In this document: positions 18,635 to 55,330 of the stretch, piece after piece
Layout: each line of letters opens with the position of its first letter
Numbering within the stretch: the stretch's first letter is position 1
Origin: a phage
Sequence record: PZ476263.1
DNA: 64,000 nt
Strand: one strand, 5' to 3'
Translations under genes and position numbers: made by a program
The notes under the pieces: model-generated
Seen by the model: the letters and a program-made list of their open reading frames with translations, nothing else
What the model was told of the DNA's origin: nothing
The model's database searches: none

Positions 18635-18692
18635 TCTAATCTCCTCTCGTTGTTGATGTGATGATTATAGGCTTCCTTGCCCAATGTGTCAA

Positions 18693-43421: not shown

Positions 43422-43449
43422 ATTTACGAGAACTTGAGGGAGAAGTCAA
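43421..43449 (-). promoter_or_regulatory. sigma70-like promoter for leftward block
   Basis: On - strand TTGACT (rc 43444-43449), 17-nt spacer, TAAATT (rc 43421-43426); spacer contains the GAACTTGAGGG motif also repeated at 51.3-51.5 kb. Confidence 0.5.
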
Positions 43450-43512
43450 TACTTGATTTTCATTTATTTTGTGATATTCTTCTCTCAACTTAAACGAGAA
43501 GGAGAGTAATAG

Positions 43513-44043
43513 ATGAAAAAAGATAAAGAGCTTGCAATTGCAATCAGTCTTGCAGCACATCACCACGTTGATCAAACAGATAAAGGAGGTAACGTATACA
43601 TCCTTCACCCTTTGGAAGTTATGAATACTCTAGCAAGTCGTGGTGATTATCATCTTATGGCTGCTGGTGTTCTTCACGACATTCTGGAGGATTGCCCTGT
43701 TACTGAACAAGATTTATTGGACGCAGGGATTAGTATAAAGACAGTAAGAACAGTGAAGAAAGTTACAAAGGTTAAGGGTCAGAAACCTCGGGACTATCTC
43801 TTAGGTATCTTGTATGACATTAACGCTTCAAAAGTTAAGTTGGCAGATCTTAAGCATAACTTGGATCTTCTACGTGTTCGTGAAATCGACGAGAAAGCAG
43901 TAAAAAGAATTAAAAAATATGTTGACATGTATACCGTAATAGAGCAATCTATTGCCTGGCAACAAAAGAACTTTGAAGATTCGGATTCTTACTATAATGC
44001 AAGAGATGAGTATCTGGAGGAGTTAATCAAAATACTGAAATAA
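43513..44043 (+). CDS. small alarmone hydrolase (RelA/SpoT-type HD domain, (p)ppGpp hydrolase-like)
   Basis: 176 aa; HD-domain motifs AAHHH, AAGVLHDILED and KLADLKHNL, characteristic of SpoT/Mesh1-type hydrolases. Confidence 0.7.
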   Translation: MKKDKELAIAISLAAHHHVDQTDKGGNVYILHPLEVMNTLASRGDYHLMAAGVLHDILEDCPVTEQDLLDAGISIKTVRTVKKVTKVKGQKPRDYLLGILYDINASKVKLADLKHNLDLLRVREIDEKAVKRIKKYVDMYTVIEQSIAWQQKNFEDSDSYYNARDEYLEELIKILK

Positions 44044-44059: not shown

Positions 44060-44088
44060 TTGACACGATAAACAAAACGCTCCATAAT
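44060..44088 (+). promoter_or_regulatory. sigma70-like promoter
   Basis: TTGACA (44060-44065), 17 nt, CATAAT (44083-44088); RBS AAAGGAG before ATG 44121. Confidence 0.6.
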
Positions 44089-44120: not shown

Positions 44121-45350
44121 ATGCAAGCAACTTATCAACGTATGGACCAGAGCATGTTCAAAAAACGTATCAGCATTCGTCATATGGAAGCGCTTATTCG
44201 CTTGGGTGCATCGATTGGTAAAACTGTGTTCTTTTATGGCGGCGCTGGTCTGGGTAAATCCGAGAAAGTTCGTCAGATCGCAGACGCAATGTTCCCAAAT
44301 CGCGTAGGTAATAACCTCTGTGATGTTCGTCTGTCCGATAAAGAACCACAAGACGTTGCAGGTATTCCGATCCCTGTTACCTTGATTGATGAGAAAACTG
44401 GTAAAGAAGTTACTCGTACCGTTTATGCTGTACCAAACTTCTGGCCTACCGATCCTGATTGGCAGGGTATTGTTTTCCTTGATGAACTGCCTAACGCCCC
44501 GCTGGGTACTCAGCACTCGGCATATCAGGTAATTCTGGATCACGTTGCAGGTGAGCATAAATTCCCTGAAGGCTGCGTGTTTGTAGGTGCGGGTAACCGT
44601 GATACCGATGGTGCAGGTACTACCACAATGCCAGGTCCATTGGTTAACCGTATGATCTTGGCAGAAATTGATTATAACTTGGATGTTTGGATTGAAGATT
44701 ATGCGATTCCTTATCGTTTACATCCGAACGTAATTGGTTTCCTCAAGCAATTCCCTGAACATTTTTACACAGGGGATGTTGAGAACCGAAGCACTCAGGT
44801 ATTCGCTTCGCCTCGCCAATGGAAAACTGTTTCAGATATCCTTTATAAATATGATCAAGGAACTATGTCTGAATTTATCGCAGAGGTGGCGATTGCAGGT
44901 ACAGTTGGCGAAGGTCTTGAAGTTCAAGTATTGGCTTATCATATGCGTACTAAAGAACTTCCGGCGATTGAAGACATTTTCAGCGGTAAAACTAAAGAGC
45001 ATAAGTTGGATCGTAGTAAAAACGACCTGGTTTATGTATTGGCACAGACTGGTCTTCGTAAGATGGAAGATGAAGTCATGGATAATGAGATTAAGGATGA
45101 AGATTTCCTGGAGCGTTCAGGTAACTTCTTAACCTTTATGTACAATAACTATTACGATAACAACAAGGATACTCTGATTGCGATGATCTTGGGTGTATTC
45201 CGTGGTCCAAATGACAAGCCGTCCATTTTGACTGTTAACCCTCGTCGTCAGAAGATGATCCCGATGATGCGTAAGACTTGTCCGACCATCTCAGCTGTTG
45301 TTATGGAGTACATGACTCGTTATGGTCAACTGATTAAAGATTTTGAATAA
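44121..45350 (+). CDS. MoxR/CbbQ/CobS-like AAA+ ATPase
   Basis: 409 aa; Walker A FFYGGAGLGKSE; Walker B VFLDELPNAP. Confidence 0.75.
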   Translation: MQATYQRMDQSMFKKRISIRHMEALIRLGASIGKTVFFYGGAGLGKSEKVRQIADAMFPNRVGNNLCDVRLSDKEPQDVAGIPIPVTLIDEKTGKEVTRTVYAVPNFWPTDPDWQGIVFLDELPNAPLGTQHSAYQVILDHVAGEHKFPEGCVFVGAGNRDTDGAGTTTMPGPLVNRMILAEIDYNLDVWIEDYAIPYRLHPNVIGFLKQFPEHFYTGDVENRSTQVFASPRQWKTVSDILYKYDQGTMSEFIAEVAIAGTVGEGLEVQVLAYHMRTKELPAIEDIFSGKTKEHKLDRSKNDLVYVLAQTGLRKMEDEVMDNEIKDEDFLERSGNFLTFMYNNYYDNNKDTLIAMILGVFRGPNDKPSILTVNPRRQKMIPMMRKTCPTISAVVMEYMTRYGQLIKDFE

Positions 45351-45355
45351 AATCG

Positions 45356-45384
45356 TTGACAACAAAATCTAACTGACTTATTAT
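45356..45384 (+). promoter_or_regulatory. sigma70-like promoter
   Basis: TTGACA (45356-45361), 17 nt, TATTAT (45379-45384). Confidence 0.5.
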
Positions 45385-45432
45385 AGGGGCATCTCGAAAG
45401 GGGTGTCCCTTTTTAATACCGGAGGATATGTA

Positions 45433-46950
45433 ATGATTGACCAAAAAGAAAAAGATATGATTCAACAACAAGACTCAGAAGCTGTTCGTATTATCGAGGC
45501 AGCAAGCCTTCAGTTGATGCGATTTAAACCGTTTTACGGAGTCATGCTGTCATCCATGCCCGTTAAGAACGGTACTTCATGGTGCTCCACAATGGCAACT
45601 GATGGTCGTAACCTCTATTATCATCCAGAATTTATCGCAGGGATGACAGATGAGCGTAAACAGTTAGTTCTTTCACGCCTGAAAGCTTCTGTGAGCGATC
45701 CTCAGCGCCTTAAAGAACTTACCCTGTACATCGAGTCATTTTATCGTCGTAAGACCGCCAGAGAGGTCGCTCTTATCCTTGAGCACGAATGTGACCACGT
45801 AGTTTCTGATCACGCCAGTCGTGGGAAAGGTTTTAATCACGAGCTTTACAATATTGCTGCGGATCATCGTATCAATACAACGGCAGTCCTGATCCATCAA
45901 AAAGGTGATGCATTAGGTAAGGCTTGGTTCCCTCAGGGTGAAAAGACAGTATTTGATCCGTTGCAAGAGTTTGGTTTTATGCATTGGGCTTATTGTGATT
46001 TCAAATTCAAAGATATGTATACAGAGCAGATCTATGAAATTTTGAACAAAGAAGAAAATGAGAAAGATAAATCTGATGGGAAAGGAAATGGATCGGGTAA
46101 CGGTGGGCCGGATGGCGATCTGAAAGGTGTTGACCAACACACAGATGAAAACGGTGATCCTGATGATGGTAATAATGATGTTGAAGATGCATTAGGTATC
46201 GACAAGAAAAGCAAACCAAAGCAGACAGCCGAAGAGCGTCAATATAACGATGGTGTAATGCGTCGAGCTATTGAGAATGCTGTTCAGGCGGCGGGTTCTG
46301 GTGCGCCGGAAGATGCTCGTCTCTTTGTTGAAGCTGACGGTAAGCCAAAGATTAACTACCTTCGTTTGCTTCGTCGTACTATTGAGCGTTTATTTAAACA
46401 GGATGTGTCTTATCGTCGTTTATCTCGTCGTAGTCACTCTTTGACTCGTACATTGCGTGGTGCTGGTTATATTAGTTCTCGACAAACTGTTGGTTTACCT
46501 TCTCACAACAAGCAGAAGACTATTCGTGCGGGTGTTTTCTTTGATGTGTCGGGTTCTTTTAACGATGAACTTCTTAAGCCAACAATGCGAGAGATCAGGG
46601 GTCTTTGTAATCTTTATGATGAGTTTGAAGTTACAATGGCCTGTTGGTCAACTAAGGTTGGTAACATAGAAACTTACACCAAAAAGAATATTAAGGACAT
46701 GGCTAACTATAAGATTAAGACTACTTTTGGTACGGACGTATCTTGTGTCTTTGAAGAGCTAGATAAGATGGAAAATCCTATGGATCAGATCATTATCTAT
46801 ACGGATGGTTACTTCTCTGATGTTTCTCAAACAAAAGATTGGGCCAAAAAGTATGGTAAGAATGTTCTTTGGATCATCCTTGGTCGTGGAGGAAATTCTT
46901 TCAAACCTCCATTCGGCAACGCGATTGATTTTGATAAGTACGTTAAGTAA
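45433..46950 (+). CDS. VWA-domain protein with HExxH motif and acidic linker (partner of AAA+ ATPase)
   Basis: Start placed at ATG 45433 after GGAGGA (track starts at GTG 45403); HECDH motif; acidic low-complexity segment; C-terminal VFFDVSGSF... resembling a VWA MIDAS region. Confidence 0.6.
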   Translation: MIDQKEKDMIQQQDSEAVRIIEAASLQLMRFKPFYGVMLSSMPVKNGTSWCSTMATDGRNLYYHPEFIAGMTDERKQLVLSRLKASVSDPQRLKELTLYIESFYRRKTAREVALILEHECDHVVSDHASRGKGFNHELYNIAADHRINTTAVLIHQKGDALGKAWFPQGEKTVFDPLQEFGFMHWAYCDFKFKDMYTEQIYEILNKEENEKDKSDGKGNGSGNGGPDGDLKGVDQHTDENGDPDDGNNDVEDALGIDKKSKPKQTAEERQYNDGVMRRAIENAVQAAGSGAPEDARLFVEADGKPKINYLRLLRRTIERLFKQDVSYRRLSRRSHSLTRTLRGAGYISSRQTVGLPSHNKQKTIRAGVFFDVSGSFNDELLKPTMREIRGLCNLYDEFEVTMACWSTKVGNIETYTKKNIKDMANYKIKTTFGTDVSCVFEELDKMENPMDQIIIYTDGYFSDVSQTKDWAKKYGKNVLWIILGRGGNSFKPPFGNAIDFDKYVK

Positions 46951-46959
46951 GGAGGTATC

Positions 46960-47331
46960 TTGGACCAGTACGGTACTAAACACAGTATCCTTCGTAAAGG
47001 AGGACACCTCACTGTGTTCTCTATGGATCCCAAAGGGAATTTTAAATCAGAATGGATAATAACTTACAACGGCAAGGGTTTTAAAATGACAAGGTACACT
47101 TACCCTAGTTTTATTAGAAAAGATATTGTCAGCGAAGATACATTCTTGTATCCTGATAAGCTTAAGGATGAGGATATTGATTTTATCGAGGCACTCTTAG
47201 GGACACTAACTGATCAAGAGAGATCTTTGATTAAGCTTTGTTCCTTACTTGTTGCAAAATGGGCGGCGGGTCATTCAGAAGAAGATTTGTTAACAACGAC
47301 TAACAACGTAGTTAAGAGTTGGTCTAACTAA
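46960..47331 (+). CDS. hypothetical protein
   Basis: 123 aa, RBS AAGGAGG. Confidence 0.55.
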   Translation: MDQYGTKHSILRKGGHLTVFSMDPKGNFKSEWIITYNGKGFKMTRYTYPSFIRKDIVSEDTFLYPDKLKDEDIDFIEALLGTLTDQERSLIKLCSLLVAKWAAGHSEEDLLTTTNNVVKSWSN

Positions 47332-47494: not shown

Positions 47495-47523
47495 TTGACA
47501 CACAAACATACTGAAGATATAGT
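47495..47523 (+). promoter_or_regulatory. sigma70-like promoter
   Basis: TTGACA (47495-47500), 17 nt, TATAGT. Confidence 0.45.
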
Positions 47524-55062: not shown

Positions 55063-55305
55063 ATGAAAAAATTATCTTCCATCGTCAATCATAATGAAAT
55101 TTTCATTAATGAAAAATCCTACGCATGCATTCAACTAAAAGAGATGAAAGGTGATCGCCGTGTAACTGTCGTTCGCAAAGTTAAAAGTAAGCCTTTTAGT
55201 AATTACTCTATCGATACCGTTCGCATCAATAACGAAGATTATTTGATCGATAGTCAAATAACTTGCAGTCCCACAGCTTCAGTTAGTGCACCATATCACT
55301 ATTGA
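55063..55305 (+). CDS. hypothetical small protein
   Basis: Start placed at ATG 55063 downstream of promoter/hairpin (track starts 55009). Confidence 0.5.
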   Translation: MKKLSSIVNHNEIFINEKSYACIQLKEMKGDRRVTVVRKVKSKPFSNYSIDTVRINNEDYLIDSQITCSPTASVSAPYHY

Positions 55306-55330
55306 CAGAAGGGCCGAGAGGCCCTATAAT
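55302..55330 (+). promoter_or_regulatory. consensus sigma70 promoter with GC hairpin in spacer
   Basis: TTGACA 55302-55307, 17-nt spacer containing GGGCC-gaga-GGCCC, TATAAT 55325-55330. Confidence 0.6.

Follow-up and report, generated by a model that had tools for sequence, protein, structure and literature searches.

A phage gene pair of the N4 gp24/gp25 kind encodes a MoxR-type AAA+ ATPase and a putative zincin–VWA partner that may act before late morphogenesis

The 64,000-nucleotide stretch of phage DNA that we analysed (sequence record PZ476263.1; hereafter the window) carries on its + strand a gene for a putative AAA+ ATPase (44121–45350; 409 amino acids) and, behind it, a gene for a partner protein (45433–46950; 505 amino acids) in which a putative metallopeptidase domain precedes a VWA domain; the two products are homologues of gp24 and gp25, respectively, of phage N4. 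An earlier note, made from the sequence alone, had placed two adjacent + strand genes at 44121–46950, and we found both open reading frames (ORFs) there. The partner ORF as called mechanically runs from a GTG at 45403 to 46950 and would encode 515 amino acids. As judged from the sequence, the true start is almost certainly the ATG at 45433, because a GGAGGA ribosome-binding site (45421–45426, + strand) lies at the proper distance, 6 nucleotides upstream, because the GTG at 45403 falls within a predicted hairpin, and because the homologues are 500–520 amino acids long; this start yields the length of about 505 amino acids that the note had given. Both ORFs are genes and not chance ORFs, since their best homologue matches are so strong (E = 1e-276 for the ATPase; E = 0, 1150 bits, for the partner), and homologues of both proteins are carried by hundreds of phage records. 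The closest sequenced phages are the Escherichia phages W70, LTH01, UPEC06 and A5-4 (Vequintavirinae, ~140 kb), with a DNA identity of only 78–79%. The exact protein sequences of the window were absent from the large sequence collection that we searched, in which the nearest ones, 99% identical, were found on a 141-kb contig.

The ATPase contains a Walker A motif (GGAGLGKS, residues 40–47, nucleotides 44238–44261; the GAGLGKSE of the note corresponds to residues 41–48) and a Walker B motif (VFLDELP, as the note had it, residues 118–124, nucleotides 44472–44492), and G43, G45, K46, S47, D121 and E122 are invariant within the family. In the AlphaFold model of the protein (predicted local distance difference test score, pLDDT, 89.6), strands 82–89 and 96–103 make up a helix-2-insert hairpin (residues 82–103) between β2 and β3, and the C-terminal region (residues ~186–409) is helical and unusually long. 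Among 118 sequences (45 phage and 73 cellular), the Walker A and B motifs, the helix-2-insert motif (D68-x-R-L...E75-P-x-D78..G81), the sensor-1 residue N159, the N176-R177 pair and R232 are at least 93% conserved, with R177 a candidate arginine finger. The top matches of the model in a Foldseek search of the PDB were NorQ (E 4e-8 to 1e-7; target-normalised template modelling score 0.57–0.64) and CbbQ2 (6l1q), followed by dynein AAA modules and McrB. Moreover, a profile of 45 relatives of the ATPase matched the AAA_5 modules of midasin/Rea1 (E 9e-22), the helix-2-insert and sensor segments aligning with those of midasin, and in PHROGs the protein falls into phrog_1297 ('ATPase', 2e-100). Single-sequence searches against PDB sequences gave nothing useful.

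The profile searches that the earlier note had proposed as a check gave a divided result: the partner passed the thresholds of both of its Pfam domains (see below), but the window ATPase scored below every Pfam AAA threshold (AAA_5, AAA_3 and bpMoxR), with PF00004 at E 0.14 as its only match, and neither protein matched a family in NCBIfam. The cut-off of AAA_5 (22 bits) was passed, however, by the relatives P0072 (29.5), P0069 (24.5) and P0070 (23.9), by the ATPase of jumbo phage Paride (24.0) and by a cellular orthologue (L077, 41.6), all of which are tied to the family of the window ATPase by E values of 7e-18 to 4e-28 or by an hhalign probability of 100%; more distant relatives and cellular orthologues pass AAA_5 or bpMoxR. 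The window ATPase therefore belongs to AAA_5 by transitivity, through the relatives above threshold. Among the weak Pfam matches of the 45 relatives, bpMoxR (14) and AAA_5 (8) were the most frequent. Taken together, the fold matches, the match of the midasin profile, the AAA_5 and bpMoxR matches of the relatives and the conserved motifs lead us to classify the 409-residue protein, from its sequence and model, as a MoxR-type AAA+ ATPase and not as one that is specifically CobS-like. Of the label 'MoxR/CobS-like' given in the earlier note, the MoxR part thus agrees with the NorQ and CbbQ2 folds, and we rejected the reading as CobS/CobT because no family model matched: neither protein had a CobS or CobT match in Pfam or NCBIfam.

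Pfam assigns two domains to the partner, namely PF13203 (DUF2201_N, 'putative metallopeptidase'; 86.7 bits against a cut-off of 23.2) and PF09967 (DUF2201, 'VWA-like'; 30.9 bits against a cut-off of 26.4). All 45 aligned relatives match both of them, the peptidase-like domain first and the VWA-like domain second, and the family is named 'DUF2201 family putative metallopeptidase' by NCBI. The model of the partner (pLDDT 84.4) has an N-terminal helical domain with a small sheet, a disordered segment (residues 217–245), a helical region and an α/β domain of ~150 residues; fold searches with the whole model were dominated by VWA matches. The predicted zincin-like peptidase core (residues 1–215; 45433–46077, + strand) has a three-stranded sheet and an active-site helix (residues 109–128) that bears H118-E119-x-x-H122 (nucleotides 45784–45798), which is the HECDH motif that the note had seen in the N-terminal part, followed by H127 and R130. 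The next helix bears N140-x-A142-x-D144-x-x-x-N148, and a further one E198..Y201. In 125 sequences (45 phage and 80 cellular), the HExxH glutamate, E119, is invariant, and H127 (124/125) and D144 (125/125) are candidate third metal ligands. The columns invariant in the 45 phage relatives are H118, E119, H122, A142, D144, N148, Y201, D371, S373, G374, S375, G433, T434, T457 and D458, and because these residues do not vary, the zincin motif and the full MIDAS (metal ion-dependent adhesion site) motif of the VWA domain are under strict selection. Weak secondary Pfam matches of the relatives were to Peptidase_M48, SprT-like, M78, PhageMetallopep and DUF5700, as well as to VWA_CoxE.

Between the two domains lies the acidic low-complexity segment that the note had described (residues ~203–260; 46039–46212, + strand), which is predicted to be disordered and is rich in acidic residues, Gly, Lys and Asn (12 D, 11 G, 9 K and 5 E in 62 residues). 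All 45 relatives have at this position a Gly-rich, net-acidic segment of low complexity, 27–220 residues long. Within the window protein, the stretch also contains a D234-x-H236 motif (nucleotides 46132–46140), and the truly variable acidic part begins only after it. Both the D and the H are present in 80/80 cellular sequences, and in 37/45 and 41/45 phage sequences, respectively, a degree of conservation similar to that of E198 and Y201. The pLDDT is below 50 at residues 217–235 and 237–245, so that residue 236 is the sole exception within 217–245, a weak hint that the model anchors it. Because the motif is conserved across phage and cellular partner sequences, it probably belongs to the peptidase site. 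In thermolysin-type enzymes, an Asp/His pair stabilises the transition state, and by analogy the D-x-H motif could play a similar role.

The C-terminal VWA domain (residues ~356–505; 46498–46950, + strand), which the note had called VWA-like, is above the Pfam cut-off for DUF2201 and in the model has a Rossmann-like VWA fold. Its MIDAS motif is complete (D371-x-S373-G-S375, that is DVSGS, nucleotides 46543–46557, together with T434 and D458), and these residues are invariant in the 45 phage sequences and present in at least 79 of the 80 cellular ones. The protein ends in a conserved tail, PFG..V.FD.Y. Only 154 of the 257 residues of the NorD VWA chain (9qh8_G) align with the partner.

Profile comparisons connect both proteins to phage N4. 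The window ATPase is homologous to N4 gp24 (hhalign probability 99.9%, E 6e-37, 300 columns) and the partner to N4 gp25 (probability 100%, E 1.7e-41, 358 columns), which have been listed as 'putative ATPase, AAA superfamily' and 'vWFA superfamily' (PMC2784036) and described as middle transcripts (PMC4193335). In N4, as in the window, the two genes are adjacent, on the same strand and in a non-structural region, where their neighbours are genes for nucleotide metabolism and replication. The phages themselves are different: the window comes from a ~140-kb Vequintavirinae-like myovirus, whereas N4 is a podovirus, and gp24/gp25 are core genes of the N4-like phages (Schitoviridae). The window proteins are also longer than those of N4 (409 versus 352 residues for the ATPase, and 505 versus 380 for the partner), the partner having an extra helical insert (residues ~73–105) and a much longer acidic stretch than gp25. 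Iyer, Anantharaman, Krishnan, Burroughs and Aravind described in 2021 a pair consisting of a MoxR AAA+ protein and a metallopeptidase-vWA protein in group 2.2 jumbo phages (PMC7824862), whose domain architecture is identical to that of the window pair; tblastn searches with the window proteins indeed reached RaK2-, PBECO4/121Q-, CBB-, XaC1- and PA5oct/Paride-type jumbo phages. Their description was limited to jumbo phages, whereas the module found here is in a 140-kb phage.

The pair also exists in cells. On a bacterial contig that carries AsmA, MoaC, UbiE, PlsY and TrpD genes, the stop codon of an AAA_5 ATPase gene overlaps the start of a DUF2201 gene, and the cellular ATPase matches the phage ATPase family with an hhalign probability of 100% (E 5.5e-53). 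Scanning reference genomes gave 80 cellular loci, from Chromatiales, Thiobacillus, Hydrogenophilales, Gallionellaceae, Thiotrichales and relatives (beta- and gammaproteobacteria). Of these loci, 75 have an ATPase gene upstream on the same strand, 61 of them within 60 nucleotides; the other five have no upstream sequence. The cellular and window pairs have in common the order of ATPase and then partner, the invariant residues, the D-x-H motif and the acidic stretch, but the cellular proteins are shorter (~349 and ~380–423 residues), are usually translationally coupled and are encoded beside housekeeping genes. (A Sel1-repeat protein is encoded directly upstream of the operon on one cellular contig. 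Across the cellular loci, L011–L090, a conserved protein of ~295 residues is encoded ~2 kb upstream in 37 loci and one of ~379 residues just downstream in 26; both are without a Pfam match.)

More distant systems share less with the pair. NorQ/NorD and CbbQ/CbbO, which serve in metal insertion into nitric oxide reductase and as Rubisco activase, respectively, have a sequence identity to the window pair of only 14–18%; NorD and CbbO lack the zincin domain, and the partner's N-terminal domain is DUF2201_N and not NorD-like, with no match to the NorD or CbbO families. Midasin/Rea1, a eukaryotic ribosome-assembly AAA+ protein, combines six AAA modules and a MIDAS in one chain of 4,800 residues with no peptidase. 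With the aerobic cobaltochelatase CobS/CobT the pair has in common the general AAA+ plus VWA scheme. CobT-like phage proteins in BFVD do match the partner, at E 1e-8 to 1e-5, far below its full-length relatives. Apart from a tail fibre, which is the only ORF of more than 700 residues, the window has no ORF of sufficient length for a CobN-type subunit (CobN was not searched for directly).

To follow the two families, we relied on tblastn, which detected the ATPase in 844 GenBank phage records and the partner, for which an N4-like query was used, in 752. The counts by genus (ATPase/partner) were 216/211 for Escherichia, 112/112 for Pseudomonas, 70/69 for Klebsiella, 34/34 for Salmonella, 20/20 for Rhizobium and 17/17 for Achromobacter, and the identities of the two proteins to the same phage groups ran in parallel (87/85%, 73/61%, 38/38% and ~26/23%). 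A single-sequence search with the partner among 1.84 billion cluster representatives (50% identity) returned 3,434 matches at E ≤1e-3 and 544 at E ≤1e-10. The genes are adjacent in the window, in N4, in UPEC06 (annotated as 'MoxR ATPase' and a hypothetical protein) and in CR3; both were also found in jumbo phage Paride and on metagenomic contigs of an N4-like phage, of another phage and of a 195-kb marine phage, and BFVD adds relatives in cyanophage S-TIM5, Bacillus phage PBS1 and Ruegeria phages. The rV5-type phages have the pair in divergent orientation with 3.6 kb in between, and in some other phages the distance is ~3 kb; because of these arrangements, tight co-translation is not required. 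(In Paride, where the ATPase gene is ~3 kb upstream, a 498-residue ORF with weak restriction-endonuclease-like matches (MTES_1575, Vsr) lies immediately upstream of the DUF2201 gene, at 107815–109311 (L005), and bears the same 'homing endonuclease' label as that gene.) These findings support a functional link between the two genes, as the earlier note had supposed on seeing them side by side, and establish that the pair is a widespread module of the N4 gp24/gp25 kind and not an oddity of this phage.

The sequences before and between the two genes contain signals that may bear on their expression. A σ70-type promoter-like site (TTGACA-17-CATAAT; 44060–44088, + strand) that matches 11 of 12 consensus positions lies in the 77-nucleotide gap upstream of the ATPase gene, and another, also close to consensus (TTGACA-17-TATTAT; 45356–45384, + strand), lies between the ATPase and partner genes. 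These sites were called by consensus matching only. Against a chance expectation of 0.21, the window has five instances of the pattern TTGACA-N17-YATWRT, at 18664–18692 on the – strand and at 44060–44088, 45356–45384, 47495–47523 and 55302–55330 on the + strand; the sites at 44060, 45356 and 47495 are in intergenic gaps, all in gene orientation, and the four nearest annotated genes are oriented with the sites. (Within the spacer of the site at 55302 there is a GC hairpin, GGGCC-GAGA-GGCCC, and a UPEC06 site, L001:14214-14242, likewise has one in its spacer.) Directly after the –10 box of the site at 45356 there is a predicted 11-bp stem-loop followed by a T-run (45385–45415, + strand; fold –27.2 kcal/mol, z = –3.8). 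Both UPEC06 and CR3 retain the –35 box and its position, the GGAG of the ribosome-binding site, and the order of –35 box, –10 box, hairpin, T-run and ribosome-binding site. The hairpin itself is conserved in UPEC06, and in CR3 its stem differs in sequence but is still complementary, giving the same structure.

Such conservation suggests that selection maintains a terminator/promoter junction by which the two genes are uncoupled. The hairpin is probably a terminator or attenuator of read-through from the ATPase gene, and transcripts begun at the 45356 site would lack part of its 5′ arm, so the partner would be transcribed from a host-type promoter of its own while read-through from the ATPase gene would stop at the hairpin. 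If the genes are transcribed separately, the dosage of ring and adaptor could differ. More generally, the promoter signals suggest that expression of the pair depends on host RNA polymerase and precedes the late phase.

The location of the pair is that of non-structural genes. Tail and fibre genes occupy 1–12.7 kb on the + strand of the window and are followed by a leftward block (12.7–43.4 kb) that includes DNA polymerase, primase-helicase and helicase genes; at 43.5 kb a rightward unit of mostly small ORFs begins, in which an HD-domain gene comes first, the ATPase gene next and the partner gene after it. The pair is thus 31 kb from the tail-fibre cluster, past the replication genes, with the ~30-kb leftward block in between. 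This context, unlike the virion-assembly proposal made for the jumbo-phage pair (PMC7824862), argues for an earlier, non-structural role.

How might the two proteins work together? NorQD offers a precedent: its AAA ring is bound by the VWA domain, and as nucleotides cycle, the linker of the partner is twisted and stretched (PMC13036017). On balance, we think it probable, if only mildly so, that the pair is an ATP-driven zinc-peptidase and remodelling machine, coupled through its VWA adaptor, that likely acts before late morphogenesis. The analysis itself shows the domain architecture, the near-invariance of all the catalytic and metal-binding residues and the conserved pairing in phages and cells. 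By analogy, the ATPase would presumably form a hexameric ring, and the VWA domain of the partner would dock on that ring as NorD does on NorQ. The metal site of the MIDAS would capture a target protein by an acidic residue, ATP hydrolysis would move the VWA domain and the linker, and the target, a host protein or a non-structural phage protein in the cytoplasm, would be remodelled and then cut by the peptidase domain. What we infer in this scheme is that a ring forms, that the two proteins interact physically and that proteolysis takes place, as well as when the machine acts, what its target is and of what nature that target is. Hydrolysis is favoured over mere metal handling because the catalytic Glu is invariant, and not just the metal ligands. 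Action before late morphogenesis is the most likely timing because the genes lie in a non-structural region and behind host-type promoters, and because their N4 orthologues have been described as middle transcripts. Since the cellular copies adjoin housekeeping genes, the core activity cannot be virion-specific.

Several points weigh against this proposal. We found no experiment on any member of the family in the available literature, and early or middle expression is compatible with a role in assembly too. The ATPase of the window is itself below the Pfam thresholds, as noted above, and the genes are divergent or set apart in the rV5-type and some other phages. The promoter evidence comes from consensus matches, and the intergenic site is common to close relatives but not to CR3 at one mismatch. 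Finally, the VWA domain of the partner has only ~150 residues and, in the model, is without a NorD-type finger or long hairpin insertion; given a domain this short and finger-less, its docking mode may differ from that of NorD, and the pore may be engaged, in place of a finger, by the acidic stretch or by the conserved tail at the C terminus.

We weighed other explanations against the same evidence. Iyer et al. (2021) proposed, for exactly this architecture and by analogy with p618/p892 of the archaeal virus ATV (PMC7824862), a chaperone for the morphogenesis of virions (tails or fibres) with a fused peptidase that trims structural proteins. Such a role gains from the presence of some virion protein genes near gp24/gp25 homologues in roseophage N4-like genomes (PMC4193335) and from the lateral tail fibre gene ~5 kb from the partner gene in phage RudolfGeigy, but, though plausible, it seems to us less likely than our own proposal, because the window pair, far from the tail-fibre cluster, stands at the head of a unit in which the ORFs are small and non-structural and the promoters of host type, because gp24/gp25 of N4 are described as middle transcripts and PMC4193335 does not name them among the virion proteins of N4, because bacterial chromosomes without virions to make keep the same operon beside housekeeping genes, and because no family member is reported as a virion protein in the literature searched. 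An idea that stays closer to ours, and to which we give still less credence, is that the pair is an AAA+/VWA-gated zincin serving early in infection as a protease for host takeover or counter-defence, and not as an assembly factor. The D-x-H motif in the disordered acidic stretch would then complete or block the zincin active site; the ring would pull on the VWA domain and linker, and the peptidase would be switched on only once the MIDAS has captured a target. If this were true, more than 750 phages from at least four families (among them N4-like phages, Vequintavirinae, RaK2/PA5oct-like jumbo phages, PBS1/AR9-like phages and marine myoviruses) would use a borrowed cellular module against one conserved host protein, for example a defence, nucleoid or stress-response factor, that is destroyed early.

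A chelatase-like or metal-insertion chaperone of the NorQ/NorD, CbbQ/CbbO or CobS/CobT type, in which the HExxH motif holds or delivers a metal and nothing is cleaved, would accord with the closest solved structures, which include NorQ and the NorD VWA domain, with the many conserved His and Asp residues of the partner, and with the fact that characterised MoxR/VWA pairs mostly mature metalloenzymes (PMC13036017). We consider it improbable nonetheless. No CobS, CobT, NorD or CbbO family model matched, the window has no CobN-sized ORF besides the tail fibre, the BFVD CobT-like proteins match only at the modest E values given above, and the weak secondary matches of the relatives are to peptidase families (M48, SprT-like, M78 and PhageMetallopep); moreover the HExxH Glu, the general base of zincins, which metal binding does not need, is invariant in all 125 sequences. 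Where the earlier note spoke of a 'chaperone-like or chelatase-like machine', then, the remodelling sense is retained in our proposal and the chelatase sense finds no family model to support it. That the two genes are mere neighbours with independent functions might be argued from the rV5-type arrangement and from the separate promoter-like sites and the terminator-like hairpin in the window, and yet the near-identical genus counts over about 750–840 phage records, the parallel divergence of the two families across the same phage groups and the strict adjacent operon in 61 of 75 cellular loci make this very improbable. Least credible of all is the label that phrog_1314 and many GenBank records give the partner, HNH or homing endonuclease: nothing but this database label speaks for it, no HNH or other nuclease domain was detected, DUF2201_N and DUF2201 cover the whole length of a protein with a helical zincin-like and VWA fold, and it is the adjacent gene of Paride that is truly endonuclease-like. 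We attribute the 'HNH endonuclease' label of phrog_1314 to a propagated annotation error with no domain support.

Part of this was known before. The architecture has been known for jumbo phages since 2021, the annotation of the N4 genome already listed the N4 genes, and relatives are annotated as 'MoxR ATPase'; there is nothing unusual about the window copy itself. What the present analysis adds is the chain of orthology that links N4 with Vequintavirinae, jumbo phages and a bacterial operon; a D-x-H motif, conserved but previously unremarked, within the 'linker'; the conserved promoter–hairpin junction between the two genes; and an argument, from context and from conservation in cells, that a cytoplasmic role before the late phase is a better fit than one in virion assembly. 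With an orthologous bacterial operon, invariant catalytic residues and a pre-late context, the question is directly testable in N4 or an rV5-like coliphage. Among functionally uncharacterised phage gene pairs, moreover, this is one of the more widespread, and it includes N4 and therapy-relevant rV5-like and N4-like phages.

Mainly, the result corrects misleading database labels ('HNH endonuclease', 'anti-sigma factor' and 'CobS-like'). The partner is mislabelled 'HNH endonuclease' or 'homing endonuclease' in N4 gp25, CR3 gp113, Paride_0139 and many other records. Earlier BASEL records call the partner itself a 'putative anti-sigma factor', again with no domain support; in RudolfGeigy this label is on the gene next to that of the partner, whose product is unrelated to the ATPase and without Pfam support, and we rejected it. 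The ATPase homologue of Salmonella phage SSBI34 is named 'ribosomal protein uS19', likewise with no domain support. The pair is not a known anti-phage defence system, because PADLOC gave only an insignificant match of the ATPase to DolB (E 0.009, 13 bits over the P-loop) and none for the partner. In the literature, data on these genes are absent from the CRISPRi-ART paper, the pair goes unmentioned in the PA5oct omics paper, we found no paper linking rV5 with 'MoxR ATPase', and searches for 'DUF2201' and 'COG3864' turned up nothing functional.

Two genes flank the pair in the window. Directly downstream of the partner gene is one (46960–47331, + strand) for a 123-residue protein (phrog_12385) with a syntenic, 34% identical counterpart in CR3 (gp114). 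We considered this protein as a universal third component and rejected the idea: rV5-type RudolfGeigy has no counterpart immediately downstream of its partner gene, and the small ORF that separates the two genes on an N4-like contig is unrelated to the protein. Upstream of the ATPase gene, the HD-domain gene (43513–44043, + strand) encodes 176 residues that resemble the (p)ppGpp-hydrolase half of RelA/SpoT (Pfam HD_4, 3.9e-9; N-terminal part of TIGR00691, 1.2e-15; phrog_990), with the HD and ADLKHN motifs intact, so that its sequence looks like that of a small alarmone hydrolase. CR3 (gp108) and UPEC06 have the gene in the same place, under the label 'GTP pyrophosphokinase', and it may point to functions in host physiology or counter-defence within the rightward unit. 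Leftward and rightward transcription diverge just before this gene, at about 43.45 kb (~43430–43510), and the GC skew switches sign at 44 kb, from a long negative run (12–44 kb) to positive.

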